Numbered from the stretch's first letter, positions 40,789 to 64,000 are shown. The stretch is DNA of 64,000 nt from an uncultured Bdellovibrionales bacterium (GCA_964384235.1 CAYLJX010000003.1:72389-136388), one strand, 5' to 3'. Notes: a model not told the origin generated them from the letters alone. Numbers and translations: made by a program.

Positions 40789-40883
40789 ATGATTTGACTA
40801 ACAACTTACAACTGACGACTTACAACAGATGCATCTGTTCAGTTTTCTTGGTTGTCGGTTGTTCGTTGTTCGTTGTTAGTTGA

Positions 40884-44288
<3,405 letters not shown>

Positions 44289-44999: not shown

Positions 45000-45770
45000 T
45001 CATTTCAAACGTTTCCAATCGAAATTCCACGGGTCGGTCTTGCGGCCGGGAGCGATGTCGGTGTGACCGACGACATGCTTGATCGGATACTGTTTCTTGA
45101 GGGAAGCAATGAGCGCGTTCACGGCCGTGTACTCTGCATCGGTATACTTCCCCTCCATCGTGTTCATGAGCTCGATACCGATGGAGAAATCATTGACATT
45201 GGTGCGGCCGTCCGGCATCTTGCTCGTCCCGGCATGATAGGCGACGTTTTGGTCCGCGACCAGACGGTAGACTCCCCCCTCGCGATCGATGAGGTAGTGG
45301 GCGCTCACGCCGTATTCCTTGTACTCGTCGATGAGTTTCGATACGGAGTACGGGTCGCCGCCAAGGGCGTTGTACGACGAGTGCAGCACCACCGTGTCGA
45401 TGCTCCGTGCTTTCTTGGGTACCGAGTATCCGAAGCCCACCAGGCGATCTACAATCGTGAAACTACTGTCTTTCGTCTCCGTCTTCGCGGGTTCGGGAGC
45501 AGGAGTCGGAGCTATTGAAGGAGTCGGCTCTGACACTTTCTCCTTTACCGACACGTCCAGCTTCTTGGGTACTTCCCTATTTTCAGAGGAAGCCTTTTCT
45601 TCCTCTTGAGGACTCACCGCCTCCTGCGGCACTTCTTCCTGCTTCGGTTCTGCGATCACCGGATTGGCATACGTCTGCGTCTTCGCCTTATCCTTCTGGA
45701 CAAAGAAAAAAACTCCTCCTCCCCCGAGAAGCACCACGACCAATACACCAAAAAATATCCCCTTGTTCAT
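45000..45770 (-). CDS. N-acetylmuramoyl-L-alanine amidase (Amidase_2/PGRP fold) with an N-terminal TM anchor
   Basis: ..VVLHSSYNALGG..AHYLIDREGGVYRLV..AYHAG...VGHTDIAPGRKTDP. Confidence 0.85.
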   Translation of the reverse strand: MNKGIFFGVLVVVLLGGGGVFFFVQKDKAKTQTYANPVIAEPKQEEVPQEAVSPQEEEKASSENREVPKKLDVSVKEKVSEPTPSIAPTPAPEPAKTETKDSSFTIVDRLVGFGYSVPKKARSIDTVVLHSSYNALGGDPYSVSKLIDEYKEYGVSAHYLIDREGGVYRLVADQNVAYHAGTSKMPDGRTNVNDFSIGIELMNTMEGKYTDAEYTAVNALIASLKKQYPIKHVVGHTDIAPGRKTDPWNFDWKRLK

Positions 45771-45886
45771 GATTTGTATTATACCACCCTCCTTTCTTTG
45801 TCATCCCCGCGGAGGCGGGGATCCAGGCATCACCAATGTTCAATATCCTTTTTACTAAGGTTAGTGGAACCTACCTGCCGGTAGAC

Positions 45887-45942
45887 AGGAAAACGAAAGC
45901 AAATTTTCATTTCACTCGCTACGCGTTGGGTAATAAAAAAAA
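45887..45942. repeat. Intergenic repeat family A, copy 2
   Basis: ggaaaacgaaagcaaattttcatttcactcgctacgcgttgggtaataaaaaaaaa. Confidence 0.6.
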
Positions 45943-47863: not shown

Positions 47864-47985
47864 GGATGTTGGTTTTTCCTCTGTAAAAAATTATACCACG
47901 TCTCCTCTGTTCCGCAATCTTGCAATCATCTTATTTCCCGTGCTATCAAACAACTCAGGAGGCTTATCTTTTTTTCCAGGTTGAC

Positions 47986-49887
47986 ATGAAACGCCTCCTC
48001 CTCGTGATACTTTTTGACAGTCTCTTTCTTCCTCTTCCGGTTCTGGCGGACACCGTCCCTACCATCATCATAAGCGAGGTCCAGACGAGCGGTGCGTCGA
48101 GCGATGACGAATTCATCGAGCTCTACAATCCCGGGAGCAGCACGGTGAATCTCAGCGACTACGCCCTCCGTCGCAAAACCAAGGGTGACACGAGCGCCCT
48201 GGGCACCTCCGTCAAATCCTTTTCCTCAAGCGATACCATCGGGGCGAAGGAGTATTTCCTCTGGGCCAATTCCAAGAGCGTCTTCAAGGACTTGGCCGAC
48301 GCGACGACCACGGCGAGCCTCACCGATGACAACAGTCTCGCTCTCGTAGGCAAGAATAACGTGATAGTCGACACGGTCACGTACGGCTCGGGACACGCCG
48401 CGCCGTTCTCCCCGACCGTCTCGTCCAATCCTGACAAGAAACAGTCGCTCGTCCGCGACCTTGATACGCTCGAGTGGCAAAAATCCTCGGCACCGACCCC
48501 GACAAACGGTCTCGGCGTGACGTACGAGGAACCGACCCCTTCGACTCCTTCGACGGGCTCAGGGCAAGCAGGCTCAGGGCAAGTAGGCTCGGGATCTTCG
48601 ACTCCTACCACTTCTTCGGCCGTCCGTCTCAACGAACTTCTCCCCAACCCCAAGGAGAAAGGCGAGAAAAACGAGTACATCGAACTCTACAATAGCGGGA
48701 GCGACGAAGTCTCACTCGCCAACTGGACCCTCCGTGACGCATCCAAGACCGGCAAGTACGTTTTTCCCTCAACGTCATCCATCGCCGGCCACGGCTACCT
48801 CGTCATCACGCGCGAGACGTCCGGCCTCTCGCTCAACAATTCCGACGAGACTGTTTCCCTCTTCGATGCGAGCGGCACCCTCGTCTCTTCCGTCCGCTAC
48901 GACAAGACCAAGGAAAACATCTCGCTCAATTACTCCGAAAAAGGATGGCGCGGGAGCAAGTTCCTCACGCCCGGCGCGGAGAACATCCTAAATTCTCTCC
49001 CCGACACCAAGGAGCGCATCCCCAAGAAAGGCTATGCCAAGATGCCCGTGGAATTCCACGCCAAAGGCAAGGACAAAGACGGCGACAAACTCAAGTACAC
49101 CTGGGACTTCGGCGACGGACACAAGAGTTACAAACGAGACACCGCCCATACCTACAAGAAGAAAGGCAAGTACACGATCCGTCTCACCGTGACCGACGGT
49201 TCGGAGGACACTGTCGAGACCAAGAAGATCAAGATCGAGAAATACGAATATCCCGATCTCAAGATCACGACCCTCTCACCGAACCCCGCCGGAAGCGACA
49301 CGGAAAACGAGTGGATCGTCATCGAAAACAAAGGCAAGAAAAAAGTGAATCTCAAGGATTTCGCCATCGCGACCGGCTGGAAATCCCTCGCGAACCACCC
49401 TATCCGAAGCGACCTGGTCATCAAGCCAGGGAAAACCCTCAAGCTTTCACGGAAAGACGCGCTCTTCACCCTTCCCAACAAGCAGGGCAAGATAGAACTC
49501 CGTGCCCCCGACGGTAAGACACTCCAGAAGGTCAAGTACCAACTCGCCGCGTCCGTGAAAGAGAATACCGTCTATCACAAGGAAAAGAATCTTCCGTGGG
49601 CCTGGAAACAGGTTGAGAATGTTTCCTCTCCTCAAAATGCTCCCTCCCTCACGGCGAAGAAAGAAACTTCATCCCCCGCTCCAGAAAAAAAAGAAGAGGC
49701 TCAGCAAACAAAGAAAGAAGAGGTTCAACCGGAAACCTCTCCGACAGAACAACCTTCTATCCCTCCGACTGAAACAGCACCGACCCTTCCCATCGAACAG
49801 GAACAACCTTCTTCCTTTACTCACATTCTGGAAACAATTTTCTCATCTCTAAACGGACTCTTAAACAGACTGTTCGGTGTTCAGTAA
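47986..49887 (+). CDS. Secreted multidomain protein: three lamin-tail domains (LTD), a PKD domain and a C-terminal low-complexity tail
   Basis: Signal peptide MKRLLLVILFDSLFLPLPVLA; repeated ISEV..DEFIELYN / NEYIELYN / NEWIVIEN LTD signatures; WDFGDGHKSY..YTIRLTVTDG PKD motif. Confidence 0.8.
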   Translation: MKRLLLVILFDSLFLPLPVLADTVPTIIISEVQTSGASSDDEFIELYNPGSSTVNLSDYALRRKTKGDTSALGTSVKSFSSSDTIGAKEYFLWANSKSVFKDLADATTTASLTDDNSLALVGKNNVIVDTVTYGSGHAAPFSPTVSSNPDKKQSLVRDLDTLEWQKSSAPTPTNGLGVTYEEPTPSTPSTGSGQAGSGQVGSGSSTPTTSSAVRLNELLPNPKEKGEKNEYIELYNSGSDEVSLANWTLRDASKTGKYVFPSTSSIAGHGYLVITRETSGLSLNNSDETVSLFDASGTLVSSVRYDKTKENISLNYSEKGWRGSKFLTPGAENILNSLPDTKERIPKKGYAKMPVEFHAKGKDKDGDKLKYTWDFGDGHKSYKRDTAHTYKKKGKYTIRLTVTDGSEDTVETKKIKIEKYEYPDLKITTLSPNPAGSDTENEWIVIENKGKKKVNLKDFAIATGWKSLANHPIRSDLVIKPGKTLKLSRKDALFTLPNKQGKIELRAPDGKTLQKVKYQLAASVKENTVYHKEKNLPWAWKQVENVSSPQNAPSLTAKKETSSPAPEKKEEAQQTKKEEVQPETSPTEQPSIPPTETAPTLPIEQEQPSSFTHILETIFSSLNGLLNRLFGVQ

Positions 49888-49925
49888 AAAAGCTACGAAC
49901 CTTTCCTTTCGAACGGAAGGCAAAG

Positions 49926-50047
49926 ATCCCTTTTCGGAGTCTTGAAGATCCGGAAGCGGGCATGGTTCCGACTGACAAGGAGGAGAGCGAAGGAGCTTCA
50001 GGAGGGAGCCCGTACGCCGGACGGGCGAGCGACTCCGAAAAGGGAGG
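49926..50047. ncRNA. Structured RNA element E, copy 2
   Basis: ~85% identical to copy 1, with GGUUGC/GCAACC replaced by GCCCGU/ACGGGC (both pair). Confidence 0.5.
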
Positions 50048-50142
50048 CTTTGCCGGGAGAGAGAATAAAGCACTAGAAAACTTTTCGTAAAAAACAAACG
50101 CCCGGAAGAAGACTTCTCTTCCGAGCGATACAACAGTGCGAC

Positions 50143-51238: not shown

Positions 51239-51451
51239 CTCCTCACTCTTTTGTTGAAAAAACTTCCCCCATCCCCTGACGCTGCAGAAGACTCTCCATC
51301 CTATACCAGAAACGCTTTTTTGTCACGTCATAACAACAAAAGACCTGAAAAACCAGGTCTTTTCTTTAGAGCTCTTTCAGCCACCACGTTCGCACCTGGT
51401 TCGAATCCCGCGATCCCGAATTCATGGAGGTCATTCGCCAGATCCGGACGA

Positions 51452-51640
51452 TCAAAGCCATGGTGGAGGAGGCGGCTCATAGGGAGGCTCTCCCGGTTTC
51501 GGCGCTTTGTGAGACAAGAGCCAGAAGAGGTTCAGGAGCTCGAGGTACCGGCCCTTCGCCTCGGCGAAAGAAAGCACTTCGTCATAGTCCGCTTCCATTC
51601 TCGCACGGAAGCGGTCGATTGTCTCATCGGTGATCTGCAT
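51452..51640 (-). CDS. Small hypothetical protein (62 aa) with a Pro-rich tail
   Basis: Helical composition; no Shine-Dalgarno sequence seen. Confidence 0.25.
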   Translation of the reverse strand: MQITDETIDRFRARMEADYDEVLSFAEAKGRYLELLNLFWLLSHKAPKPGEPPYEPPPPPWL

Positions 51641-51830
51641 GCAACCAGAGTGCCATGCGCTGCAAACTCAGTCATGACGGGGGAATGTGCCAAGTCCGCA
51701 CACTCAGTAACCGGTGGTCCATAACGCCCTCGCAGCACCCTACATAAAGAGCGATTGGGCGGTCCGTACCGAACCAAACGTCGAACTTTCTAGGCGTGAG
51801 CCAGCGAAACTGGCCTGAGGCACTCATTCG

Positions 51831-52610
51831 TCAAGTCTTGGGGTATTCCGCATTGCACTCTTGCCGCAGGCGAGCACGTTCCGTGTCTTGGACCGGCCGC
51901 TCAATAGTGCTTCGAAGCGTCGCACGCATCCATGCACCCGGACCGAAGAGCTGTGATGGACTGGAACAGGAAATCGGAAGGCGCACACCTCGTACGACGC
52001 CGTCCTCGGCTATGAACTGGAGATCGCCAAGCTGGCCACGGCTTTCTTCTACGTTAAGAACCTCCGGTCGACCAACTATGACATAGCCGGGAGGAGCATC
52101 AAAAGCCACCACGTCTGATTGCGAGTGCCCCCCTCCACCTACGCCTGCTCCCTCGCATCTCACTTGGTTTCGAACCTCTTGTGTCTTGCGATCTTGAAAA
52201 CGAGCTACGGAGCCAGCAAGGCACTCTGCGATCTTGGCGTTTCGGTGTTCAGCAGCGTGCTGAGCCTCTTTTGCAGCGTCGAAGACTGCGTAGCCAAGGA
52301 CACATACGCCACCGAAGATGAGCACGAAGGCACCCATCTTCACGCCCCAGTGCTCTTTGCCAAAGAAGAGCCATGCCAGGAGACCGACTATGCATGCCAG
52401 CAGTGCCAAGACCCCAAGGGGTGTTTTGATCGCTGCTTCGAAGACTCTCGGGAACTGCTCAACAAGTGTTTGCAACATCCATTCCTCCCGATATCGAACT
52501 CGATCGATGACGTTCTGGTGCGCATCGCGAAATGTTTCCAATCGTGGCAATGTGCCGCCTAGGCGCGACTCGCTTCCCACGACAGAGCGCATAGCCAGCG
52601 ATTGCGACAC
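51831..52610 (-). CDS. Hypothetical 2-TM membrane protein downstream of SGNH-like paralog 1
   Basis: ..LGVLALLACIVGLLAWLFFGKEHWGVKMGAFVLIFGGVCVLGYAVF.. TM hairpin. Confidence 0.4.
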   Translation of the reverse strand: MSQSLAMRSVVGSESRLGGTLPRLETFRDAHQNVIDRVRYREEWMLQTLVEQFPRVFEAAIKTPLGVLALLACIVGLLAWLFFGKEHWGVKMGAFVLIFGGVCVLGYAVFDAAKEAQHAAEHRNAKIAECLAGSVARFQDRKTQEVRNQVRCEGAGVGGGGHSQSDVVAFDAPPGYVIVGRPEVLNVEESRGQLGDLQFIAEDGVVRGVRLPISCSSPSQLFGPGAWMRATLRSTIERPVQDTERARLRQECNAEYPKT

Positions 52611-52679
52611 TCATCCCGACCTCACAAGGAAGCATCGGTGCAGTGCGCCACGCGATCACTGATCTGTTTGGGCGACGTC

Positions 52680-53489
52680 TCACACTGCGATCGCGAGTTC
52701 CTTCAAGGTGTCGATCCAGCGTTCATTCACGATCCGCTGGAATCCCTCTCTCGTTGGGTGGAGCTCGTTGTCCCAGTCTTCGAGGTAGTTCGGGGAAACA
52801 AGACATCCGCGTGAATTGACCAAGTAGATTCGTTTGCCCGGATCCGCAAACTGCGAAAACTCCTCGGCGAGGCGGTCGATGAGGATGCGACAGATCTTCC
52901 GGCGGAGATCGGGGTCGTTCGGAACCTGTCGTTCGTCCATGGCCGGAGCGAGCCACGGCCCCGTTATCTTCAACGTCTCAAGTTTGAAGCCCCGTCCATC
53001 CGGGATGGGATAGTCGTAGGAGTGGAGGATGACGGCCGGGTGAAGCCCCTGTTTTCCGGCGGCACGCCAGACTTGATGGGTCATGGCGCCAAGGGCGGTA
53101 CCCAGTCGTCCCATCAGGGCATCCATCGCCGCCTCCTCGATACAGTCTTCCGGCGTTTGCGCTTTGGAGCAATTCCTTTTCAGCCCAAGCCCGTAATCGA
53201 CCGCATCGTTTCCTGCACCACCGATTCGGACAAACGAATAGTAGGGCATGTTCTCTGGTCGCAGTTCCCAAGCGAACTGTTTCGCGTACCTGCCGAAGAC
53301 GTACTCCTCCAGCTTGGCGCCGATGTACCCGAGCGACTGGATCTGACGATACGGATCCTGGACGCGCGGATGGGTCGCAATCGCGTAGAGGAGGTTGCTC
53401 TTCGGATACCAGAACCAGGAGTCTCCGATTGCCAGAAGTGCGGGAAATTCGCCGGGAAGCCACTGCTCGCCGGGCGCATAGATTTTCAT
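52680..53489 (-). CDS. GDSW-motif SGNH-hydrolase-like protein, paralog 1
   Basis: LLAIGDSWFWY (block I Ser), GGAGND (block III), WDNELHP (block V His); paralogous to 62572..63420. Confidence 0.65.
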   Translation of the reverse strand: MKIYAPGEQWLPGEFPALLAIGDSWFWYPKSNLLYAIATHPRVQDPYRQIQSLGYIGAKLEEYVFGRYAKQFAWELRPENMPYYSFVRIGGAGNDAVDYGLGLKRNCSKAQTPEDCIEEAAMDALMGRLGTALGAMTHQVWRAAGKQGLHPAVILHSYDYPIPDGRGFKLETLKITGPWLAPAMDERQVPNDPDLRRKICRILIDRLAEEFSQFADPGKRIYLVNSRGCLVSPNYLEDWDNELHPTREGFQRIVNERWIDTLKELAIAV

Positions 53490-53664
53490 GCTGGTCTTCA
53501 GACTCTTTGGATCGTCAGCGATCCAGTCTTTCCGTGATTCTTCGGCGGCTTTTGCATGCTTGCGTCCCTCTAGCGTAGTAACAGACGGTTAGTGACGGTA
53601 ACCAAGGTACTTCACTGATCCCCGCCGAACCGACGACGACAAAAGGGGTTGTAAGTCAACCACG

Positions 53665-55068
53665 TCACTTTGAAGTCAATCCCGCTTCCGTCATGAACTT
53701 GACGATCCGGGCCGCTGTGAGTGCTTCGTTGTAACCAAGCCTATCCTGAAACCGATTGAAGCCTTGGACGTGAATGCCGATAACCGCCCCGTCTGATAGA
53801 TCAAAAATTGGGCTGCCCGAGTTTCCGCCAGACGTGTTGGCCTTGTGCACGAACATTCCCTCATCAGTGACCTTTTTTCCCCCAGTAAAGCCACCTGAGA
53901 GCCGCTTGAACGGAAACTGGGGCGCCAACTTGTCGGGTGTTCTGAAGAACTCCACTTGTTCCGCAACGGTCATATCGTCGGGAGGTCCCGGATAGCCCAT
54001 GACCGCCACAATCATGTTCCCGGCGTATGCAGCATTAGGTCTTTCCGCAAGCGTGAGGCTTTTCGGAAACTGCTGATCGGTCGAAGTAAGGAGTATGGCC
54101 ATGTCATCTCGAGAACCTTTAGGCACTGCGTGGACTGCATTCAGAAAATATGAACGCTCCTTGTTGGGCTCCTCGCAAGCATTGTCCTTACCCAATGGGT
54201 ACTCGACGTCAAAATAGACCTTCGCTCCAGGGCGAATCTTCCAAAGATTCTTCTGTTCATCATACTGAGCAATACTTTTGAGCACGTGTAGGTTTGTAAT
54301 CAGATGATTCGATCCCACGACGAAGCCTGATCCTGCTGGACGATCGTCAAGCATTATCAGACCTACGCTTCTCCCGGCCCGAACGAGTGCGTCTTTATGA
54401 GATGAAATTGTCTTACTCCACTCCAATGGGTCTTTGGGCGCCCAGAGTTGCTCCTTGCAGACAAGGAAATAGGGATTTGAGAGCGCTGCAAACGACTCAG
54501 CAACAGCCGGCGATATTCCCTTAATCTGACCCAAAACAAATTCTCGTGCCCGTTGCTTCGTTGAAATTGCCGTGTTGATAGCGGAGAGCGCCACATTGTT
54601 GGCTGGCGTCTTCGGCTCGACGGCGTTAAGCTGCGCCAGCTCTACCTGCAACTGATCGATCTCCGATTCGATTACAGCGAGTAGCGCTTGTCTCTGCGCG
54701 GGACTTTGTTGTTCCAGCGATTCTTCCAAAGACTGAGGCGTCACGGTCCCGGAACGCGATGCCGGTGTCTTCGACAGATCACCGTTGGAACCAACGAGTG
54801 GTGCGCCAGGCAGCTTTCGAGGAATCGACTGGCTGACTAGTCGAAGTTCCACATCGCTTATTTCGCGGGCACGACTAACGGATTCCACGGTGGCGCGCCT
54901 GAGGGCGTCGCCTAAGAGGTCGCCAAAGAGATCTCCCGCTTGGACGCTCGACGTTCCTAAGGCAATCGAGCACAGTAGCAGTAGACCTTTCTCAAACCTA
55001 GGACGATTGATGTTGCGATTCATTTCGGTGGCCGGCGCGCAGCTAGTTTGTTCGTACCCGTTTTTCAT
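53665..55068 (-). CDS. Secreted trypsin-like (S1, chymotrypsin-fold) serine protease with an N-terminal coiled-coil region
   Basis: Signal peptide; ..GSGFVVGSNHLITNLHV.. (His), ..DMAILL.. (Asp), ..GNSGSPIFD.. (Ser). Confidence 0.8.
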   Translation of the reverse strand: MKNGYEQTSCAPATEMNRNINRPRFEKGLLLLCSIALGTSSVQAGDLFGDLLGDALRRATVESVSRAREISDVELRLVSQSIPRKLPGAPLVGSNGDLSKTPASRSGTVTPQSLEESLEQQSPAQRQALLAVIESEIDQLQVELAQLNAVEPKTPANNVALSAINTAISTKQRAREFVLGQIKGISPAVAESFAALSNPYFLVCKEQLWAPKDPLEWSKTISSHKDALVRAGRSVGLIMLDDRPAGSGFVVGSNHLITNLHVLKSIAQYDEQKNLWKIRPGAKVYFDVEYPLGKDNACEEPNKERSYFLNAVHAVPKGSRDDMAILLTSTDQQFPKSLTLAERPNAAYAGNMIVAVMGYPGPPDDMTVAEQVEFFRTPDKLAPQFPFKRLSGGFTGGKKVTDEGMFVHKANTSGGNSGSPIFDLSDGAVIGIHVQGFNRFQDRLGYNEALTAARIVKFMTEAGLTSK

Positions 55069-55105
55069 GAAGGCATCTTGCGCACCCTGTCGCTAATGCG
55101 GGGAC

Positions 55106-56239
55106 CTAGTCCAATGGAATACGTTTGAAGTGCGTTTCGGCAATCGCAACGCCGACGTTTTTGATAGTCCCCGCGCTGTCGCCCTCTGTCACACGATACA
55201 TTGCGACTATCCCACCAGCGGCATATAGCCGGTCACTTCGCCAGATGCTAGTCGTCTTGAGGGAAGAACCGCCCTTGGAGAGCACTTTGAGCGTGAGAGA
55301 CCGCCCCGATGCCACCTTTAGGTGTTGATCAACAACTTCCCCCACAAGGACGGAAAGCAGCAGTGGCTTTTTCGTTGCAGCGTCGACAGTTGTGAGGCGG
55401 GTTGCAAAATCGTCCACTTGTTTGATGAGTGCGTCAGCCTTCTCCTTCTTGTTCTTGTCAGCGCTCGCGGCGACGAGCGCACTGCGACGCACGAGCAGCG
55501 CCTCGAGGTTCTTCCTAAAATCCGATGTAATCTTCCCAGAAATGATGCCATCCACGGTACCCGTCGGGTACAGAACTTTTGCTTTGAGCTTGAATACGAC
55601 ATAGTCAAACAGCAACTCGTCAGGAACCGCTGCGTCCCCGAACGCCAAACTCTTATCGGTCCGCACAATCTGAGTCAATTGTGCCGCTTGCATCAGAACT
55701 GCTCCTAGCGTGACAATTGGAAGAGGGCCCTCCGGTATAGCTTCTAGTTTGACTTTGCCCAATAGCGATTCCACCCCCCTTGCGGTGCGTTCGAGCGTCG
55801 CTTTCTCGTCCCAGTAAAGCAACAATGCCACTCGATCCGTGTCAGTCATCAGGACACATGTCGCTTCGCAGTCTTTCTCGACCGCTGTCGCAATTTGGGC
55901 CGCCACCTGCGCAAACGACTCTGCTGCTCGAGCACTGACGTGGAACTTGTCGCGCTCACTGGCTTCTATCGTGAGTGATCCTTTCTTGCCAAATCCGTCT
56001 GGCAGTGCCGGATACTCGTTCTTGATTAAGGAAGCCTGTGCTTCCAATAGGTCGCTCTCGGCCTTGATCAAGGCCTTCTTGTCATTTAGGTCGTCGATGG
56101 CTGCTTGATGCGGATTTACTTGGTCCGCTGCACTACTTGCCACCGGGAAGACAACGAAGAAGACTAGAAGAAGATTCTTCGGCCAGGTTTCCAATACCCA
56201 CCTTGCCCCAGTTGCAAACACAGTTGGACAGTTCTTCAT
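55106..56239 (-). CDS. Secreted hypothetical protein (377 aa)
   Basis: Signal peptide ..LLLVFFVVFPVASSAADQ; no recognised domain. Confidence 0.55.
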   Translation of the reverse strand: MKNCPTVFATGARWVLETWPKNLLLVFFVVFPVASSAADQVNPHQAAIDDLNDKKALIKAESDLLEAQASLIKNEYPALPDGFGKKGSLTIEASERDKFHVSARAAESFAQVAAQIATAVEKDCEATCVLMTDTDRVALLLYWDEKATLERTARGVESLLGKVKLEAIPEGPLPIVTLGAVLMQAAQLTQIVRTDKSLAFGDAAVPDELLFDYVVFKLKAKVLYPTGTVDGIISGKITSDFRKNLEALLVRRSALVAASADKNKKEKADALIKQVDDFATRLTTVDAATKKPLLLSVLVGEVVDQHLKVASGRSLTLKVLSKGGSSLKTTSIWRSDRLYAAGGIVAMYRVTEGDSAGTIKNVGVAIAETHFKRIPLD

Positions 56240-56607
56240 TTCTTCCGCCTCCCCAATTCGCGCGAAATGACACTATTGGTTGTGCCATTTTCTGCATAGG
56301 CGGCAATATCCCAGGCGTCAACCTGACGGCATGACAACCGTCGGCCTATGCCATGCGATCTATTGACGCCGGATGTACTCGAAGCGTATGAGACTTCGAT
56401 ACCTGCATGGGCACGCACCGAGCGTTCTCCGCAGCAGAGTTTCGCGACAGTGCCCGATGCTGTGCGCGTGGCGTGAAGGCGTTGGGTGAGGGCATGGGAG
56501 TACTGAGCGAGGGGTCGAAAGTCAATCCGCGGACGCCTGTTCTGTCAACGTCATGAAAAGAAAAGAGGGCGAGCAATGTCACTTTCTCGCCTCCTTGAGA
56601 TCCACTT

Positions 56608-57174
56608 TCACACCATCCCTCGCTCCGCCAGACTCACCACGTCCGTCCCCGCCACCACGAAGTGATCGAGGACCTTCACATCGACAAGTCCAAGCGCCTG
56701 CTTCAAGGCACTCGTCAGCAGCTCATCCGCCCGGCTCGGTTCGGAAACGCCAGAAGGATGGTTGTGGGCGAAGATGAGAGCGGCAGCGTTGTGCCGGAGG
56801 GCCCGCTTGACGATCTCCCTTGGATACACCGACGTCTGGCTCAAGGTGCCTCGGAAGAGTTCTTCCGAAGCGATGAGGCGGTTCTGGGCATCCAAGAAGA
56901 GCGTGAGGAACGACTCGTACTCCTGAGCAACGAAATATGCCAGGAGGTAGCGCTTCACGTGCTCCGGCGAGGTGAGGAGGATCTCCTCTCGCCGCAGGTC
57001 TTCGTAGAGGAGCCGCGTGACCAACTCCTTGGCGACCTGAAGTCGCCGCTGTGCGCTCGTCCTCGCTTCGCCCGCAAAGAGCGGCACGAGACTTCCCTGA
57101 TACAACTTCTCTGCCGCCTTCGCCCCTATGAGCCTCTCCAGCAACTCGCGGTCGCTGGCCTTCTGCATGTCCAT
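56608..57174 (-). CDS. radC: RadC-like JAB-domain protein
   Basis: N-terminal helix-hairpin-helix-like region and C-terminal ..[16 protein letters not shown].. JAMM motif. Confidence 0.85.
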
Positions 57175-57311
57175 GGCAATGGTCTCCTTCTAGAGTAAAG
57201 AACCAATTCCATCGTCATGCATGCGGCATCTCTCGCGTAGGCTTGGAAACGTGCCAAGCTGACACGTTCTCCCGTCTCCGCCCAGGAGCGTCTCTCCCCT
57301 ACCGTGGGAAG

Positions 57312-58505
57312 ATGGACTTCTCTCACGATATCGCGCTCTTCGCCCGGACCAATGCCAGGCGAAGCTTCCAGCCCTTCGGCCTCCGTCAGGCCGACCGCCT
57401 GTTTCACCTGTATGCCATAGGGAAGACGGGAACGGGCAAGTCGACCCTCCTCGAGACGCTCGCCCTTCAGGACATGCGCGCGGGCCGCGGATTGGCCGTC
57501 ATCGATCCCCATGGCGACTTGGTGCTACGCCTCAAGAAGGCGATGCCGCCCTCGCGCCGAGACGATCTGCTTTTCTTCGACGTCCCGGATGTCTCCCAAG
57601 CCTTCGGCTACAACCCGCTGCGCAAGGTGCGGCCCGACAAGATTCCCCTGGCCGCCTCGGGACTCCTGGAGGCCTTCAAGAAGCTCTGGACGGATGCCTG
57701 GGGCGTACGCATGGAGCATGTCCTGCGCAATGCTCTCTTCGCGCTCCTCGAATACGGAGAGGCGACCCTTCCGGACATCCTTCGCCTCATGACGGACAAC
57801 GCCTTCCGATACCGCGTGTCAGCGACGCTCACCAACGAACAGGTGAAGGCCTTCTGGCAGAACGAGTTCCCCAAGTACCACCCTCGCTACCGCCAGGAGA
57901 GCATCGCTCCCATCCAGAACAAGGTCGGCGCCTTCCTGGCCGATCCCAGGCTCTACCGGATCTTCACGGCTCCTCCCGTCGATCTGCGTTTCCGCAGAGT
58001 CATGGACGAGGGGAAGATCCTCCTCGTCAATCTCTCCAAGGGACAACTCGGCGAAGACAGCGCCTCGCTCCTCGGGGCTCTCCTCGTCACGACGCTCTCC
58101 TTGGCGGCCTTCTCCCGGGCGGATATGCCGGAAGCGGAGCGGAAGCCTTTCTTCATCTTCGTCGACGAATTTCAGTCGTTCACGACCCTTTCGGTGGCCG
58201 GGATGATCTCGGAATTGCGTAAGTACAACGTGGGGCTCGTCCTCGCCAACCAGCACCTCCACCAGCTCGAGCCCGATGTCCGGCACGCGGTCCTGGGGAA
58301 CGTGGGAACGCTCGTCGTCTTCCGGGTCGGCCCTGAGGATGCCCGCTTCCTCGCCCATGAGTTCGAGGGAAGCTTCTCGCCCTTCGACCTCATGAGCCTC
58401 GCCAACCATGACATCTACCTTCGCCTCATAATCGACGGGACTCCCAGCCCGCCCTTCAGCGCGACCACCATCAAGCCAGATGATCTTGATCGCTTGAGGA
58501 TGTGA
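57312..58505 (+). CDS. TrwB/TraD (type IV coupling protein)-like P-loop ATPase of the FtsK-HerA superfamily, soluble form
   Basis: Walker A YAIGKTGTGKSTLLETL followed by VIDPHGD (compare TrwB GATGTGKSVLL...VIVDPNGD); Walker B FFIFVDEFQSF; ..VGLVLANQHLHQL.. sensor; no N-terminal TMs. Confidence 0.75.
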   Translation: MDFSHDIALFARTNARRSFQPFGLRQADRLFHLYAIGKTGTGKSTLLETLALQDMRAGRGLAVIDPHGDLVLRLKKAMPPSRRDDLLFFDVPDVSQAFGYNPLRKVRPDKIPLAASGLLEAFKKLWTDAWGVRMEHVLRNALFALLEYGEATLPDILRLMTDNAFRYRVSATLTNEQVKAFWQNEFPKYHPRYRQESIAPIQNKVGAFLADPRLYRIFTAPPVDLRFRRVMDEGKILLVNLSKGQLGEDSASLLGALLVTTLSLAAFSRADMPEAERKPFFIFVDEFQSFTTLSVAGMISELRKYNVGLVLANQHLHQLEPDVRHAVLGNVGTLVVFRVGPEDARFLAHEFEGSFSPFDLMSLANHDIYLRLIIDGTPSPPFSATTIKPDDLDRLRM

Positions 58506-58551
58506 GGCGCATACTCTCATGCGCTTTCCATAGGTTTCAGAGGGGGGGGAC

Positions 58552-59064
58552 ATGGGACACGCCAAGCCGACGGAGATCTTGTCGCACTGGAACACCCGCG
58601 TCGACGGCATGCAGCAGTCGTCCCACGAGTTTTACGGAGCGGTCGAACGCACCCTCGATACGCATAGTCTCAAGGACTACAAGACAGAGCGCGTGAACAT
58701 CTCGGAAGGCGGCATCTTCTCCTCGAAGCGCGAGTACCTCCAGGTGCGCCGCGCCGACATCGTCTTCCACATCTGCGCTGCGCCGTATGGCAACGGCTTC
58801 TTCCTCTCCTGGTGGCTCGGACGGATCGAGTCGGGCTTCTGGGCCTGGATCTCCGACATTCCGGTGATCGGCATGCTCGCGCAGAATTTCTTGAAACCCC
58901 TCACCTACTACAAGCTCGACACCGCCGCGATGTTCCAAGGCGTGGTCCATTCCGTCGTCCTCGAAGTCCTCGACGGCCTGACGACGGAGAAGGGCATCCG
59001 GGCGCTGGCTGAGAGCGAACGGAGGCCCGTCATGCGCGACTTCTTCGCCCGCCTCGGAGGCTAA
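58552..59064 (+). CDS. Hypothetical protein (170 aa) between the two ATPases
   Basis: Protein-like ORF with one Trp-rich hydrophobic segment. Confidence 0.45.
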   Translation: MGHAKPTEILSHWNTRVDGMQQSSHEFYGAVERTLDTHSLKDYKTERVNISEGGIFSSKREYLQVRRADIVFHICAAPYGNGFFLSWWLGRIESGFWAWISDIPVIGMLAQNFLKPLTYYKLDTAAMFQGVVHSVVLEVLDGLTTEKGIRALAESERRPVMRDFFARLGG

Positions 59065-59079
59065 CGCCGGTCTCCGAGC

Positions 59080-62000
59080 ATGTCCGGCCTCTCGCCTGCG
59101 GAAATCATCACCACGAGCTTCTATGCGTGGGAGGTACGCGGGCGCGGGTGGCAGGTAGCGGACTATCCCGTCTGCCTTGAGCCGCCGTTTCGGCATTGCT
59201 TCGTCCTGCCCGATCTCGTCGCGGAAACGAAGCCGATCGATGACGGAAAACGGCCGACGTTCCTCAGTTCCGTGGTCGAGGGCCTGCGGAGCGCCTTCGC
59301 GCTCGACGCCACCCCTGCGCCCGAGCCCGCCCCACCGTACGAGGAACCAGCCCCCTATCCGGCACTTGCGTCCGGACCGCTCACCGCGTTTTGCGTGACG
59401 GTGCCGATGGATCACAAGAGCCATCCGGAAACGACAATCCGCCTTCTCGTCGCGCTGTCGACCTGCTGCTTCCCCGTGTCCCTCGAACTCATCGGCTGCG
59501 AAGGCCAGGTCATCATCCAACTGGTCTGCGCCGACACCGACCAGGCGCATGTGGCCGCGCAGTGCCTCGCCTACCTTCCCGACGCTGCGGTCATCGAAAC
59601 CGAGGACCTCCTTGCGAGCGTCTGGGATCGACGGCGGGAGCACGCCGTCGTCGATTTCGGGCTCTCTCAGGAATTCTTTCTGCCGTTTGATGGACTGAAG
59701 AGCCAGAAGCTCGACCCGTACCTCTCCCTTGTTCCCTCCCTCGCCAGGGCGGATCGAGACGAGGCGATCCTCCTACAGGTCCTCTTCCAAGGCGTCCAGA
59801 ATCCGTGGGGCAAGGCTATCCGCGACGCCCTCGATGATGGCCAGGGCGGTTCTGTGTTCGCGGACGCCCCAGCATTTCCCCGGCTGGCCGATGAGAAGCT
59901 GAAGACCTCCCTCTTTGCCGTCTCGGTCCGTGTCGCCGCACAGGCACAGGAGGCGGAACGAGCGTGGCACTTGGCCCGTTCGACCGGCGCCTTTTTCCTC
60001 CAATTGGGCCGACCCGGAGCCAATGAACTCCTCCCGCTTGAGAACGACGGCTACCGAGAGGATCTTCATGTCGAAGCCATCCTCACGCGGCAGTCGTACC
60101 GCCTTGGGATGATCCTCTCGGCCGACGAGTTGGCGGCGCTCGCCCATCTTCCCGATGCCGCGGTCCGTCATCCGTCCCTCACGCGGGAGGAGCGGCGGAC
60201 GAAGCCTCTTCCCGTCGAAGCCTCCGGACATCCCCATGTCCTCGGCGAAAACCAGCACCGCGGGAAGATGTCCGTCGCGTCGCTCAGTGATGGGCAGCGG
60301 CTCCAGCACACCTGGATAGTCGGCGCCTCCGGGACGGGAAAGTCGACGCTTCTCCTGAACCTCATCACTGAGGACATTCGGCTCGGTCATGGTGTCGCGG
60401 TGCTGGATCCGCACGGCGACCTGATCGACGACATCTTGGCGCGGGTGCCAGACAGCCGCACGAGCGATGTCATCGTCTTCGACCCGAGCGATACTGAGTG
60501 GCCCATCGGATTCAATATCTTCTCAGCCGGAAGCGAGGGCGAGCGGGCGCTCTTGGCTGCCGATCTCGTCGGGATCTTCCGGCGGTTCTCGACATCTTGG
60601 GGCGACACCATGAGCGCGGTGCTCGGGAACGCGGTCCTCGCGATCCTCGAGCACCCGCAGGGTGGGACGCTGCTCGACCTCAGGCGGCTCCTCGTCGATG
60701 AGCGCTTCCGCCGCGCGTACCTGGAGGACGTGGCGGACGAGGAGGTCGCCTTCTTCTGGTCGCGCGAGTACCCCGTGATCGGCTCACGTTCGATCGGCCC
60801 GATCCTGACCCGGCTTGACACCTTCCTGCGGCCCAAGGTCATTCGGCATATCGTCGGACAGCCGGATGGGAAGCTCCATTTCTCCGACGTCATGGCGTCG
60901 AAGCGCATCTTTCTCGCGAAGCTCTCCCATGGCCTCATCGGCGAGGAGAATGCCTACCTCCTCGGCAGCCTCATCGTGGGAAAGTTTCTCGGACTCGCGC
61001 TCGCGCGGCAGCAGCTCGCGAAGGATGAACGCGCCGCCTTCTTCCTGTATGCCGACGAGTTTCAGCACTTCCTCACGCCCTCCATGGAAACGCTGCTCAC
61101 GGCGGCGCGAAAGTACGCGCTTGGGGCAACGCTCGCCCATCAGACGATGGCGCAGCTCCGGGACTCGCCCAAGGTGGAAGGCGCGCTTCTCGGCAACGCC
61201 TACACGCGCATCGTCTTCCGAACCGGGGAAAGCGATGCGCGGCAGCTGGCCGAGGGGTTTTCCTTCTTTGAGGGGCGCGACATCCACGGTCTGGGACGGG
61301 GCGAGGCGATCGCCCGGCTCGGATCGAGCGGAAATGACTTCAACCTGAAAACGCTGCCGCTCCCCGGCGTGCCGCCTGGGGCGGAGGAGCGGCGCTCCCA
61401 GATCATCTTCCGCTCGCGCGAGCGCTACGGGACGCCGATCGAAGCGCTGCGGGCGCTCCTCGGGGCACGGTACAGAGCAAGCGAGGAACCGGCCGAAGCG
61501 AAGCCGAGGCCGCCGCTCGAGGAGGCACCGCCCGCGCTCTCGGGTGCGGGAGAGCCGATCGCCGCTTCCTGTGAGACACCACGGGCAAGCGTTCCGGAAC
61601 CAAAGACCGGTGAGCAACTGATGGCGCGCCGGGTACCGATCAATGTCGCAGCGGTCACCCCGGGACGGGGCGGGCAGGAGCACAAATACCTCCAGCACCT
61701 CGTGAAACGCTTGGCCGAAGAGCGCGGTTTCCGCGCCACGATTGAAGAGGCCGCGGGAGATGGCCGGGCAGACGTGGTACTGAGCAAGAGTACGCAGCGA
61801 ATCGCCTGCGAGATCTCAGTGACGACGGACCATATCCACGAGGAAGAGAACTTGAGGAAGTGCCTCGCGGCCGGATTCGAACAGATCGTCTTTGTCGTAC
61901 CCGACCGGAAACGAAGGGAGAAACTGAAAGGACATTTTCAGGAGATTGCCGGAATCGACTCGTTGGCGGTGATATCGACGGAGGAGATCGTCGCGTACCT

Positions 62001-62160
62001 CGACGGGCTGGATACCGGATCGGCCGTGGCCGAATCGACCGTGCGAGGCTACAAGGTGAAAGTCACGCGGCAGACGGTCTCGCCAGAGGAGCTGGCCGGA
62101 AGGCGCTCGGCCATCGCCGAGGTGATCGCCCGGTCGCTCCTCAAACACAAGGACGTTTGA
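59080..62160 (+). CDS. Large TrwB/HerA-like ATPase fused to an unknown N-terminal domain and a C-terminal Hjc/restriction-endonuclease-like (PD-(D/E)xK fold) domain
   Basis: Walker A WIVGASGTGKSTLLLNL..VLDPHGD, Walker B FFLYADEFQHF, paralogous to 57312..58505; the C-terminus ..LVKRLAEERGFRATIE..GDGRADVVL..RIACEISVT resembles the Hjc ..KGFAVVR..PDIIA..IEVKS pattern. Confidence 0.75.
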   Translation: MSGLSPAEIITTSFYAWEVRGRGWQVADYPVCLEPPFRHCFVLPDLVAETKPIDDGKRPTFLSSVVEGLRSAFALDATPAPEPAPPYEEPAPYPALASGPLTAFCVTVPMDHKSHPETTIRLLVALSTCCFPVSLELIGCEGQVIIQLVCADTDQAHVAAQCLAYLPDAAVIETEDLLASVWDRRREHAVVDFGLSQEFFLPFDGLKSQKLDPYLSLVPSLARADRDEAILLQVLFQGVQNPWGKAIRDALDDGQGGSVFADAPAFPRLADEKLKTSLFAVSVRVAAQAQEAERAWHLARSTGAFFLQLGRPGANELLPLENDGYREDLHVEAILTRQSYRLGMILSADELAALAHLPDAAVRHPSLTREERRTKPLPVEASGHPHVLGENQHRGKMSVASLSDGQRLQHTWIVGASGTGKSTLLLNLITEDIRLGHGVAVLDPHGDLIDDILARVPDSRTSDVIVFDPSDTEWPIGFNIFSAGSEGERALLAADLVGIFRRFSTSWGDTMSAVLGNAVLAILEHPQGGTLLDLRRLLVDERFRRAYLEDVADEEVAFFWSREYPVIGSRSIGPILTRLDTFLRPKVIRHIVGQPDGKLHFSDVMASKRIFLAKLSHGLIGEENAYLLGSLIVGKFLGLALARQQLAKDERAAFFLYADEFQHFLTPSMETLLTAARKYALGATLAHQTMAQLRDSPKVEGALLGNAYTRIVFRTGESDARQLAEGFSFFEGRDIHGLGRGEAIARLGSSGNDFNLKTLPLPGVPPGAEERRSQIIFRSRERYGTPIEALRALLGARYRASEEPAEAKPRPPLEEAPPALSGAGEPIAASCETPRASVPEPKTGEQLMARRVPINVAAVTPGRGGQEHKYLQHLVKRLAEERGFRATIEEAAGDGRADVVLSKSTQRIACEISVTTDHIHEEENLRKCLAAGFEQIVFVVPDRKRREKLKGHFQEIAGIDSLAVISTEEIVAYLDGLDTGSAVAESTVRGYKVKVTRQTVSPEELAGRRSAIAEVIARSLLKHKDV

Positions 62161-62571
62161 TAGCGACTCGCGGATCGGACGGCTGGCAAAGAAGTTTCAT
62201 TGAAGATCCTTTCTCTCGCATTGACGGGCACTGCGTCTTTGGCAGGACGGGCAGTGGCCAATGTCTTGGCCGCCATTGCCGCTCAGATCCATCAAGCAGA
62301 ACGGCACAGTCCCGCCTCGAGGAGCTATGTGCGTGATCTTTCGGTACTACAACGAAGGATCCGTTACCTCCACGTTGGCGCCGCTTGCTGCCAGCACTGC
62401 CCAAGAAGCGTGAATCCCATGGCAGGCGACAACGGTCCGTCAAGTTCGAAAGCATTTTTTATAGACCACGATCGTTTCCTGTTCAATAGATCGAATGCCA
62501 GATACCACAAGGCATGCGAGAGCCATATGCTGTTCGTCCAACAGCCTCGGCGTTCATTGGAAGGTCCGCCC

Positions 62572-63420
62572 ATGCCGCAAGCCATCGTCCTTACGCCGTC
62601 GCAACTGGAAAATCCCGACCTCGGGCAACCGCATCGGTGGGAGTTCTTCGACCGACATTACCTGGCCGAAGGAGATTCGTGGTTCACTTTGGCAGCGCTC
62701 CCCGGCGGAAACCTTCTCCAGGAGCTGCATCTACAGCGATCGTCACTGGTTATCAATACCGCCTCCCCGGGAGACACGCTCTCCCATATCGTCGAATGGC
62801 GCCAAAACCGCCCGTTTGTAAAGCTACTGTCCGAACGCAAGTTTGCACAAAAATGGGATGGGGTGCTCCTGAGCGCGGGCGGCAATGACCTCATTGATGC
62901 CGCAATTTCTCGAGACGGCATCCTCCGCCGTCCGAGCCCGACGGCAACCACCGCAGGTGAGTGCATTCACGATGAGAATCTTGAATTATTGAAACGCCAT
63001 CTGTCGTTCCATCTTGAACAGATCATAGAACTCCGCGACGCTCGGAAGAGCCCCAACCAGGGCATACCGGTCTTTCTCCACACGTACGACTATCCCACTG
63101 CGAGGCCGGCGCCCGCGAAGCTCGTTGGCGTGGTAGGCGTTTCCGGACCGTGGCTGCATCGCGCGTACACAGAACACCATATCCCCGATGCATTATGGTC
63201 ACCTTTGACAGAGCATCTGATCGACTGGCTGGCCAGATTGCTTCAGGAACTGAAGCTTCCAAATGTAACCGTTATCGATACGAGAGGGACACTCGAGCGA
63301 GCTGCTGCGGGAACAACTGGAGACAGCGGTGACTGGCTCAACGAGATCCATGCGAATCAAGGCGGCCGGAAGAAGCTTGCGAAACGGTGGGCGCAGGACT
63401 TGCATCGCATTGTCGGATAG
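62572..63420 (+). CDS. GDSW-motif SGNH-hydrolase-like protein, paralog 2
   Basis: YLAEGDSWFT, SAGGNDL, HTYDYP, GPWL, WLNEIHAN, parallel to paralog 1; start taken at MPQAIV with a GGAAGG Shine-Dalgarno. Confidence 0.65.
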   Translation: MPQAIVLTPSQLENPDLGQPHRWEFFDRHYLAEGDSWFTLAALPGGNLLQELHLQRSSLVINTASPGDTLSHIVEWRQNRPFVKLLSERKFAQKWDGVLLSAGGNDLIDAAISRDGILRRPSPTATTAGECIHDENLELLKRHLSFHLEQIIELRDARKSPNQGIPVFLHTYDYPTARPAPAKLVGVVGVSGPWLHRAYTEHHIPDALWSPLTEHLIDWLARLLQELKLPNVTVIDTRGTLERAAAGTTGDSGDWLNEIHANQGGRKKLAKRWAQDLHRIVG

Positions 63421-63462
63421 AAGCAGCCTTTCGGGGCGAATCGACACGCGTGCGATTAGAGG

Positions 63463-63945
63463 TTGGAAGAGGAAGTCGATATGACAGAAGACGATCACAA
63501 ACGCGAGCGTGAATCGTTTGCGGCCATCATCGAGAGTCTTGAGAAATCAGTGAGGGCACACCGTACAGGCATAGATGGCTGGCTGTACAACGGCGGGACC
63601 GTCGTTACCCTGGTCTTGATGGCGACCGTCTCGATTCTGTCCGGGAAAATCTTCCCGACGGACACGTTTGCAGAATGGATGGCACCAATGCTTTCGGCGA
63701 CGGCGGGCCTGGTCGTCGCGCTCGAACGGTCATTGGGATTTGGGCAACGTTGGCGGTTTCACACCGAGATGAAAGCAGGCTATGTCACTGTGATTGACAT
63801 GATCCAGTTCTACTTTGCGCTTCCTCAGGATGAGCTAGAACAACGTGCCAAGCTCCGTGTGGAAATTTGGCAGTCATTGAACGCATTGCGCAGTCGTGAA
63901 TCGGCTATACCCAACTCCGGTGGAGCCGTATCCGGTGGAGCCTGA
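63463..63945 (+). CDS. Small 2-TM protein with SLATT/DUF4231-like architecture
   Basis: N-terminal helix, TM hairpin (VVTLVLMATVSILSG / MLSATAGLVVALE), then ..FGQRWRFHTEMKAGY.. helix typical of SLATT effectors; inference only. Confidence 0.4.
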   Translation: MEEEVDMTEDDHKRERESFAAIIESLEKSVRAHRTGIDGWLYNGGTVVTLVLMATVSILSGKIFPTDTFAEWMAPMLSATAGLVVALERSLGFGQRWRFHTEMKAGYVTVIDMIQFYFALPQDELEQRAKLRVEIWQSLNALRSRESAIPNSGGAVSGGA

Positions 63946-64000
63946 TCTCTTGACCCAGAACAACGCACCTCAAAGCGGTTCGTGGAACTGCATGCGTTGG

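Follow-up and report, generated by a model that had tools for sequence, protein, structure and literature searches.

A predicted VirB4-like and coupling-protein-like ATPase fused to a variant nuclease domain, and its partner gene, on integrative elements in many phyla

The 64,000-nucleotide stretch of DNA analysed here (the window; CAYLJX010000003.1:72389-136388, assembly GCA_964384235.1) belongs to an uncultured Bdellovibrionales bacterium and carries a group of genes centred on a 1026-amino-acid (aa) protein, P0001. The gene for P0001 is real and intact, i.e. an uninterrupted open reading frame (ORF) from ATG to stop on the plus strand, and has three parts: an N-terminal domain with a predicted VirB4-like fold, a motor of the kind found in type IV coupling proteins (T4CPs), and, beyond a linker, a C-terminal domain with a predicted PD-(D/E)xK nuclease fold. 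An earlier reading of the bare DNA (hereafter the original prediction) had proposed a three-part protein, and the ORF, the Pfam matches, and the structure models agree on this division. Upstream of P0001 lie a small partner gene (P0004) and a stand-alone ATPase gene (P0002), and downstream a candidate hydrolase gene (P0003), all within a mobile island (Table 1).

Table 1. Features of the P0001 locus and its island, in window coordinates
Feature	Position	Strand	Basis and remarks
P0001, whole gene	59080..62160	+	VirB4-N-terminal-domain-like domain, T4CP-type motor, linker, variant PD-(D/E)xK nuclease (folds predicted)
Conserved N-terminal motif, aa 1-50	59080..59229	+	F14, W17, E18, G21-R22-G23, E34-P35
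VirB4/TrwK N-terminal-domain-like fold, aa 95-374	59362..60201	+	Structure match of model to 7o42_A
TrwB/VirD4-type motor of the FtsK-HerA superfamily, aa ~400-760	60277..61359	+	Pfam, PDB profile search
Walker A, GASGTGKS	60322-60345	+	Within P0001 motor
Walker B, D659-E660	61054-61059	+	Within P0001 motor
Pro/Ala/Glu-rich low-complexity linker, aa ~790-860	61447..61659	+	Sequence; poorly conserved
Variant PD-(D/E)xK core (predicted), aa 862-980	61663..62019	+	AlphaFold2 model, fold searches, conservation
C-terminal beta-hairpin (RGYKVKV; G990, Y991) and long terminal helix	62029..62157	+	Model secondary structure, conservation
P0004, partner, 170 aa	58552..59064	+	Directly upstream of P0001
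P0002, stand-alone T4CP-type ATPase, 420 aa	57243..58505	+	Paralogous to P0001 motor; probable start ATG 57312
RadC-like JAB gene	56608..57174	-	Pfam RadC 1.6e-43; divergent from cassette
P0003, SGNH/GDSL-like hydrolase candidate	62200..63420	+	Weak Pfam matches below cut-off
Mobile island	51367..64000, continuing past window	.	Contigs of two runs, comparison with relatives' DNA
Serine recombinase, 667 aa	Window-equivalent 71148-73151 (G000 C3:143536-144177 + C6:1-1420)	-	N-terminal Resolvase, C-terminal XRE helix-turn-helix

P0001 has more than 2300 database relatives; the best 120 of these share 44–68% identity with it and are nearly all full-length (~1000–1050 aa), and by sequence the family stands far above chance. 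We aligned 46 full-length homologues, scored residue conservation over 198, and folded the unannotated N- and C-terminal ends of P0001 with AlphaFold2. Public annotation describes proteins of this type as 'type IV secretion system DNA-binding domain-containing protein'. The components are of known kinds, and we found no description of a hybrid of VirB4 N-terminal domain, T4CP-type motor, and nuclease, of its variant nuclease site (E-x-S with K927; see below), of its obligate partner, or of an association with serine-recombinase islands.

The N-terminal domain of ~400 aa, which the original prediction could assign to nothing recognizable, is predicted to have a known fold, namely that of the N-terminal domain of VirB4/TrwK. 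The AlphaFold2 model of residues 1–395 has a predicted local distance difference test (pLDDT) score of 89 and a predicted template modelling (pTM) score of 0.85, and an exhaustive VIA-align search pairs its residues 95–374 with TrwK/VirB4 of R388 (7o42_A, residues 33–433) at Z 14.8, with a root-mean-square deviation of 3.5 A over 243 aligned residues. The second-best match, ESX-3 complex chain 6lar_G (EccE3), reaches Z 7.8, and TrwK chains take the top 13 places in Foldseek, which leaves the TrwK N-terminal domain as the one outstanding match. PDB sequence and profile searches with this domain give no match. On most homologues a precomputed hit to PF26449 (DUF8128) is labelled 'faint'—i.e. these are the homologues' hits and not a score of P0001 itself—and we found no paper in the literature that names DUF8128. 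Ahead of the fold, the residues of the N-terminal motif are kept in 186–195 of the 198 sequences, the remainder being nearly all gaps; an invariant D54-D55 follows in a poorly modelled stretch (pLDDT is 74–94 for residues 1–45, then low).

The central ATPase, foreseen as TrwB/HerA-like, is recognized by Pfam over residues ~400–720, with TrwB_AAD_bind (PF10412) at 40.6 bits against a cut-off of 20.5, T4SS-DNA_transf (PF02534) at 28.7 against 20.1, and TraG-D_C at 23.3 against 22. Among PDB entries its profile matches TrwB (2.9e-11), DotL (9e-7), and DptH (9.5e-6), and also HerA. G418, G420, K421, D659, E660, R677, Q692, and R710 are kept in 198/198 sequences. The VirB4 model TIGR00929 gives 20.5 bits against a cut-off of 643, in the Walker A region alone, and PF03135 (VirB4) is absent from the Pfam matches of P0001; in sequence, the motor is nearer to coupling proteins than to VirB4. 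Because the N-terminal fold matches VirB4, the non-nuclease part of P0001 would be a VirB4 N-terminal domain joined to a T4CP-type motor.

P0001 thus has likenesses on two sides. With VirB4/TrwK (R388; PDB 7o42, 8rtb, 8rtd) it shares the predicted N-terminal fold and its order before an FtsK-HerA-type motor, but it has in addition the 50-aa N-terminal motif and the C-terminal nuclease domain, and no secretion genes lie nearby. With TrwB, VirD4, and DotL it shares a nucleotide-binding domain with an all-alpha insertion above the Pfam cut-offs, TrwB being the best PDB sequence match; unlike them, it carries a globular 400-aa domain in place of the transmembrane anchor, is fused to a nuclease domain, and is not encoded beside a type IV secretion system (T4SS) or a canonical relaxase. 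The proposed paralogy of this motor with the ATPase encoded at 57312-58505 is confirmed by 38% identity to P0002 over 357 aa (E 5e-65). P0002 has intact Walker A and B motifs.

The C-terminal domain is predicted to adopt a PD-(D/E)xK fold, and the supposed resemblance to Hjc and Mrr cores is borne out at the level of structure. The model of residues 845–1026 (pLDDT 86) matches almost only PD-(D/E)xK nucleases, which supports the restriction-endonuclease-like fold that had been suspected there. Foldseek ranks AF1548 first (4.5e-5), followed by R2 restriction-like endonuclease (RLE), EcoT38I, Bax1, PaqCI, Can2, NucS, and Hjc. VIA-align gives Z 10.9 for AF1548, 9.9 for Can2, 9.8 for NucS, 8.9 for FokI, and 8.1 for Hjc, with VC1899, PaqCI, and BamHI also within Z 8–11, and Z 9.6 for the C-terminal nuclease of the Upx entry (PDB 9wuf). 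In sequence alone the resemblance is weak: Mrr_cat (PF04471) reaches 17.8 bits against a cut-off of 21 (E 0.004, 44 residues covered), a PDDEXK_9 match is also below cut-off, and PDB sequence and profile searches return sub-threshold matches alone (1y88, E 0.44). A search for short stand-alone homologues of the domain found apparent fragments of the P0001 family, mostly on short contigs. The linker before the domain has a blank alignment consensus, and pLDDT is low over the first ~20 residues of the C-terminal model.

The predicted core shares with Hjc, NucS/EndoMS, and Mrr-type and AF1548-type nucleases the alpha-beta-beta-beta-alpha-beta arrangement and the acids at the canonical D and E positions (D898 and E911). 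Hjc is a stand-alone dimer of ~140 aa with E...D...E-x-K, whereas the P0001 domain is part of a 1026-aa protein. It also differs from such minimal nucleases in having E-x-(S/small) and, as additional conserved residues, H868, E921, N924, K927, and C928; a GRGG motif, E889, D898, and E911-I-S913 are the other conserved features of the core. As the original prediction had noted, E-I-S (E911-I912-S913) replaces E-x-K. Residue 913 is S in 170 homologues, C in 11, A in 6, G in 6, and N in 3, and K in none, i.e. the canonical Lys position holds a small residue in all 198.

A missing lysine could mean, as was suggested at the outset, that the domain is catalytically dead and serves the motor as a DNA-binding or recognition module, and the sub-threshold Mrr_cat and PDDEXK_9 matches would fit such a loss. 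The remainder of the site speaks otherwise. H868, E889, D898, and E921 are kept in 198/198 sequences, E911, K927, and C928 in 196, and N924 in 194; these include the presumed metal-binding acids D898 and E911, and residues of this sort are normally lost from decayed active sites. Active PD-(D/E)xK variants with a relocated or replaced lysine are known (e.g. BamHI, with E-x-E), and BamHI is among the fold matches. We therefore give a dead domain only a slim chance, a question orthogonal to that of what the module does. Because a decayed site would not keep these residues, the nuclease site looks like a conserved variant active site, in which K927 (on the helix after strand 3) or H868 may replace the missing lysine. 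With Walker A and B, the arginines of the motor, and the nuclease residues invariant or nearly so, the catalytic machinery as a whole appears to be under strong selection.

P0001 and P0004 form an obligate pair. We took 80 genomic loci from more than 12 phyla and clustered their neighbourhoods (locus counts are given over 81). A P0004-like gene is the immediate upstream neighbour, in the same orientation, in 73/81; the remaining cases are explained by truncated contigs or by artefacts of ORF calling. A census of 36,145 genera finds P0004 in 186 genera of 23 phyla, and the reverse census places a P0001-type protein within 3 kb of it in 159 of these 186 genera, compared with 0 at random. By likeness band the linkage is 36/51, 93/105, and 24/27, and the top likeness band of P0004 lies in class Minisyncoccia. 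P0004 has no Pfam, NCBIfam, PADLOC, or PHROG family match and falls in the protein atlas into clusters of 'hypothetical protein' alone. Its place directly upstream of P0001 recalls that of virB3 upstream of virB4, but a strict VirB3-like analogue is ruled out, as P0004 has no transmembrane-grade hydrophobic segment (hydropathy maximum 1.34). The second ATPase is a looser companion: a P0002-like gene occurs within 10 kb in 38/81 loci, mostly directly upstream.

The module is rare but broad, with ~0.5% of genera and 23–27 phyla represented. The census counts ~150 genera with close relatives of the N-terminal domain, including 51 of Verrucomicrobiota, 27 of Bacteroidota, 18 of Acidobacteriota, 15 of Planctomycetota, and 9 of Patescibacteriota, among others. 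Weak relatives are present in 882/4172 Patescibacteriota genera, including 465/708 of Microgenomatia, and this sequence pattern suggests a lineage-wide VirB4-like system in Patescibacteriota. Among PLSDB plasmids and INPHARED phages, matches are to the ATPase core alone, and no place covers >=80% of P0001.

The module sits in integrative elements of 22–58 kb with variable cargo. A large serine recombinase (Resolvase, Recombinase, and Zn ribbon domains) lies within 10 kb in 42/81 loci and, in the census, in 39/75 close carriers compared with 6/300 random places. It is often found directly downstream of the cassette, with a truncated comM beyond it (order cassette, recombinase, comM fragment), and whole insertions of 58, 44, and 35 kb are bounded by split comM halves. 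The 35- and 44-kb elements have the recombinase, a double helix-turn-helix (HTH) regulator, and the cassette in common, and nothing else; their remaining cargo is unrelated (FRG, RES, an insertion sequence (IS), GGDEF-EAL, subtilase, and glucodextranase). The cassette varies in position and orientation within elements. Recurrent neighbours include SWIM with PDDEXK_1/Cas4-like genes (7–8 loci), tyrosine integrases (8), Replic_Relax (6/81), CHC2/DnaG-like genes (6), and ArdC (5), as well as orphan N6/N4 methylases and XRE regulators, and a RadC cluster recurs in 11/81 loci. The divergent recurrent neighbours (RadC, ArdC, orphan methylases, Replic_Relax, and primase-like genes) are of kinds typical of conjugatively transferred DNA. 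One comM insertion, containing two of the sampled loci (G003:C4:122900-159200, L098 and L099), resembles a tandem array, in which the double-HTH regulator occurs four times and there are two serine recombinases as well as two duplicated 3' fragments of comM; the cassette is present in the last ~13-kb unit alone.

The element of the window encodes its own serine recombinase and spans at least ~22 kb. In two wastewater or sludge runs, DNA contigs agree with 51366/51369-64000 at ~100%; to the left of this they depart from the window, each run into different sequence, which sets the left end of the island at ~51367. The window between 48 and 51.2 kb has no cover in these two runs, and DNA of relatives in the genus matches the window up to ~49.6 kb, beyond which there are only short matches to other ATPase genes. 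Immediately left of the divergence point is a terminator-like hairpin (51344-51366, GACCTG...CAGGTC with a T-run), which would have the island start right after a host terminator. On the other side, contigs C3 and C6 share exactly 55 nt where the former ends and the latter starts, and the joint is crossed by an unbroken 667-aa ORF, pointing to an assembly break inside the recombinase gene of the island. Insertion in comM, seen in relatives elsewhere, is ruled out for the window's genome, in which comM is intact on another contig. The GC content of the cassette is 63.8%, compared with 56.7% for the window.

The company of a serine recombinase in many loci raises the possibility that the module replicates or maintains the element after excision, as an analogue of the Cch helicase genes beside ccr in the staphylococcal cassette chromosome (SCC). 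Here the excised circle would be nicked by the nuclease, while unwinding or segregation by the ring ATPase would prevent loss of the element. Such a role could draw on the primase-like (DnaG_N, CHC2) neighbours in some loci, on the lack of any other recognizable replication or transfer gene in the elements, and on ParM/MreB-like genes in the operons of phage relatives (see below). On the other hand, FtsK/TrwB-type motors translocate DNA and are not replicative helicases; repeat scans show no origin-like iterons, and the cassette has no fixed position or orientation within the element. We consider a maintenance role quite improbable.

Distant relatives of the ATPase occur in lytic phages, where the arrangement is split. 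Residues 271–794 of P0001 match phrog_5156 (8.6e-57), and the Bacillus phages 0305phi8-36, CP-51, and JL encode a homologous ATPase of 800–910 aa followed directly by a gene for a ~280-aa protein; the two ORFs overlap in 2/3 of these phages (0305phi8-36 and CP-51). The homology extends to the N-terminal domain of P0001 (hhalign probability 89.5%, E 2e-6). The gene after the ATPase has been described as a CloDF13-MobC-like relaxase in a 'DNA translocation operon' (Pathria et al. 2012, PMC3357382), and MOBC relaxases (pAD1 TraX and CloDF13 MobC) belong to the PD-(D/E)xK superfamily (PMC12857230). In BFVD, the C-terminal model of P0001 matches, among many nucleases, a 274-aa protein of Bacillus phage JL and a 283-aa entry (E 1.5e-3 and 7e-4), lengths that equal those of JL gp149 and 0305phi8-36 ORF200. 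The phage operon (0305phi8-36 ORF201 and ORF200; SPO1, CP-51, and JL) can be seen as a split counterpart of the P0001 fusion, with a homologous N-terminal domain, a matching motor, and an adjoining MobC-like gene. It differs in having ~24% identity, a separate nuclease-like protein with an HTH, and no detected homologue of P0004 (hhalign of the P0004 profile against phage ORF204 shows no similarity). Comparison of the split and fused arrangements suggests that the ATPase works with a PD-(D/E)xK DNA-processing enzyme. The phage operons also hold an MreB-like gene (0305phi8-36, L106) or a StbA/ParM-like gene (JL, L107); CP-51 is L105. Homologues in conjugation or partition operons, which the original prediction had named as evidence against a DNA-targeting system, were thus found in part, i.e. 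beside MobC-like and ParM/MreB-like genes in phages, and not in any T4SS operon.

Taken together, P0001 is quite likely an active DNA translocase that forms a ring, has an active nuclease tethered to it, works with a small obligate subunit, and is carried by integrative elements. As to its role, we tentatively favour a DNA-processing and transfer ('Dtr-like') module belonging to the element itself. This preference derives from the predicted conjugative ancestry of both non-nuclease parts, the relaxase-type partner in the phage relatives, the presence of the cassette among the few genes common to unrelated islands, and the RadC, ArdC, methylase, and Replic_Relax neighbours. P0001 would be an ATP-driven DNA translocase-nuclease of conjugative ancestry, presumably hexameric, with a variant and probably active PD-(D/E)xK nuclease on a flexible Pro-rich linker, and would act as an obligate pair with P0004, often together with the stand-alone motor P0002. 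The element would insert by means of its large serine recombinase. After excision, the nuclease domain might nick or cut the DNA of the element in the manner of a MOBC-type restriction-endonuclease-like relaxase, and the motor or motors might then feed the nicked DNA to an export route, probably borrowed from a helper. MOBC relaxases offer a precedent in that they are PD-(D/E)xK-superfamily proteins that process transferred DNA and are encoded beside a coupling ATPase (MobB in CloDF13; PMC12857230); the P0001 domain differs in being fused to its ATPase, and its likeness to such relaxases consists of modest fold matches to the probable phage ORF200 and gp149 proteins.

Several results weigh against a Dtr-like role. 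Neither T4SS genes nor a canonical relaxase turned up in the annotated recurrent gene clusters that lie within +/-10 kb of the 80 loci, among 144 immediately flanking ORFs, or among the annotated genes of two complete elements, and the canonical VirB4 Pfam model is not found in 4/5 host genomes examined. Scans for inverted and direct repeats round the cassette, in the window and at two other loci, show no arrays resembling an origin of transfer (oriT), clt, or iterons. By hydropathy, P0001 and P0002 have no N-terminal membrane anchor, unlike canonical coupling proteins, and the hydrophobic windows of P0001 fall solely inside folded domains. The fold match to the phage proteins is no better than that to many other PD-(D/E)xK nucleases, and hhalign comparison of phage ORF200 and CP-51 gp90 (single-sequence targets) with the nuclease profile gives a probability below 1%. 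P0001 and the recombinase show weak co-divergence (Mantel r = 0.24, P = 0.06), although Mantel tests against the recombinase, P0004, and P0002 (r = 0.24–0.38) are uninformative as distances are saturated. Finally, an immune effector would account equally well for the flexibly tethered nuclease, the patchy distribution, and the defence-type genes occasionally found nearby.

That last point leads to a serious alternative, which we hold to be possible if somewhat doubtful: an anti-phage or anti-plasmid defence or exclusion module, carried as island cargo or weaponry. Here the VirB4/T4CP-like motor would load on invading DNA, the tethered nuclease would cleave it, and P0004 would be a sensor or regulator, much as in HerA-nuclease pairs, MAD7-MAD8, DndH/DptH, or McrBC. 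Immune systems commonly link an ATPase flexibly to a PD-(D/E)xK effector, DptH and defence HerA proteins are among the matches of the motor profile, the nuclease model matches Can2 and the nuclease of the Upx entry, and SAVED, KAP NTPase, AAA_15, PLD, RES, and FRG genes are occasional neighbours. The distribution, rare and very broad, is of a kind with this. The missing T4SS, membrane anchor, and oriT, together with the tethered effector, the patchy distribution, and the mad8, HerA, and DptH links, keep defence a strong rival.

The original prediction had likened P0001 to HerA-DUF4297-type defence architecture and taken it as an indicator of DNA targeting, and this specific assignment finds no backing. 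HerA-NurA, HerA-DUF4297, MAD7-MAD8 of MADS, and DndH/DptH do couple a nuclease to an ATPase of the same superfamily, but PADLOC matches stay at superfamily level: mad8 is matched by P0001 (3.4e-12) and P0002 (1.9e-18), and the best HerA E-value is 0.0088, in the Walker A region alone. MAD7-MAD8 is described as an ATPase-nuclease module that MADS requires (PMC13662399). Membership in MADS is ruled out; P0003 and P0004 have no PADLOC match, the neighbours are RadC, a peptidase, and genes without assignment, and the other mad genes are absent, as are methylase, kinase, and dnd partner genes. Further points speak against defence in general. P0001 stands in the context of a mobile-element core and not of a defence operon, it is among the few genes common to two otherwise unrelated cargos, and its recurrent neighbours are offensive, anti-restriction, and mobile-element genes, compared with 1–2 each of the defence-type genes SAVED, KAP, AAA_15, and PLD among the 144 flanking ORFs. 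There is no swapping of effectors among the 198 family members, and in the phage relatives a relaxase-like gene accompanies the ATPase.

The nearest published analogue is an EccE3-like/VirB4-like ATPase with a small helical partner in CoCoNuT loci (Bell et al. 2024, PMC11090510). The Type III-A extensions of these loci combine an EccE/VirB4-N-terminal-type domain with a VirB4-like ATPase and a small operon partner; they differ in lacking a nuclease and in standing in McrBC-type operons, and are set beside P0001 by description and by the EccE3 fold match (PMC11090510).

In its strongest form, the Dtr-like role would make P0004 and P0001, with or without P0002, a self-contained machine for nicking and pumping DNA that has no T4SS of its own, with a PD-(D/E)xK 'relaxase analogue' on a VirB4/VirD4-hybrid motor. 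We think this unlikely. If it were true, it would define a new class of serine-recombinase integrative elements in more than 20 phyla, including the ultra-small Patescibacteria, and would explain the movement of islands without recognizable transfer genes; to our knowledge, most genomic islands have no known means of transfer. More generally, this is a highly conserved, uncharacterized module of two to three genes made of conjugation ATPases and a nuclease. Should it mobilize islands, it would represent a new solution to DNA processing, i.e. a relaxase-like PD-(D/E)xK domain fused to a coupling-type motor; should it serve defence or exclusion, it would be a new family in which a VirB4-like domain acts as sensor or scaffold. 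In both cases biochemistry gains a natural VirB4 N-terminal domain outside T4SSs and a conserved E-x-S/helix-Lys variant of PD-(D/E)xK.

The remaining genes of the island differ among carriers. P0003 clusters with 2 loci alone, with a similar-sized gene at the same position in one of the sampled loci (L001), and we regard it as variable cargo rather than part of the conserved module; its gene (62200-63420) shows a weak relationship to the stretch 52680-53489 (cluster 38). Left of RadC, the cargo at 53665-55068, 55106-56239, and 51831-53489 (all on the minus strand) includes a 467-aa trypsin-like peptidase and three ORFs without Pfam match. All sampled words of the cassette are present in 14 runs from 10 activated-sludge or wastewater studies, and the source sample is possibly among them. 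Metatranscriptome contigs of one sample cover all three genes, for which carry-over of DNA is a possible source, and we do not claim expression.

Elsewhere in this genome (~0.99 Mb in 10 contigs), which the analysis itself took to be probably that of a Patescibacteriota member, there are more TrwB-like or VirB4-like ATPase ORFs, at C1:115378-116304 (676 aa), C3:29271-30265 (840 aa), and C2:38434-38634 (858 aa). Just left of the island, at 49890-50065, lies a repeat of ~150–170 bp with at least 9 copies on three contigs of the same genome (78–95% identity), which looks like a small dispersed repeat resembling miniature inverted-repeat transposable elements (MITE) or repetitive extragenic palindromes (REP). 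A second short repeat (~45870-45940) is also found elsewhere in this genome and in relatives of the genus. Further left, the region 37198-44288 (minus strand) encodes the beta' subunit of RNA polymerase (37198-40788) and a 1134-aa ORF (40884-44288) whose position suggests the beta subunit, and the region of 45000-45770 (minus strand) and 47920-49887 (plus strand) encodes an N-acetylmuramoyl-L-alanine amidase and a 655-aa protein in which three lamin-tail domains are combined with a PKD domain. These genes look like core genes of the host, fitting a host with a small genome.

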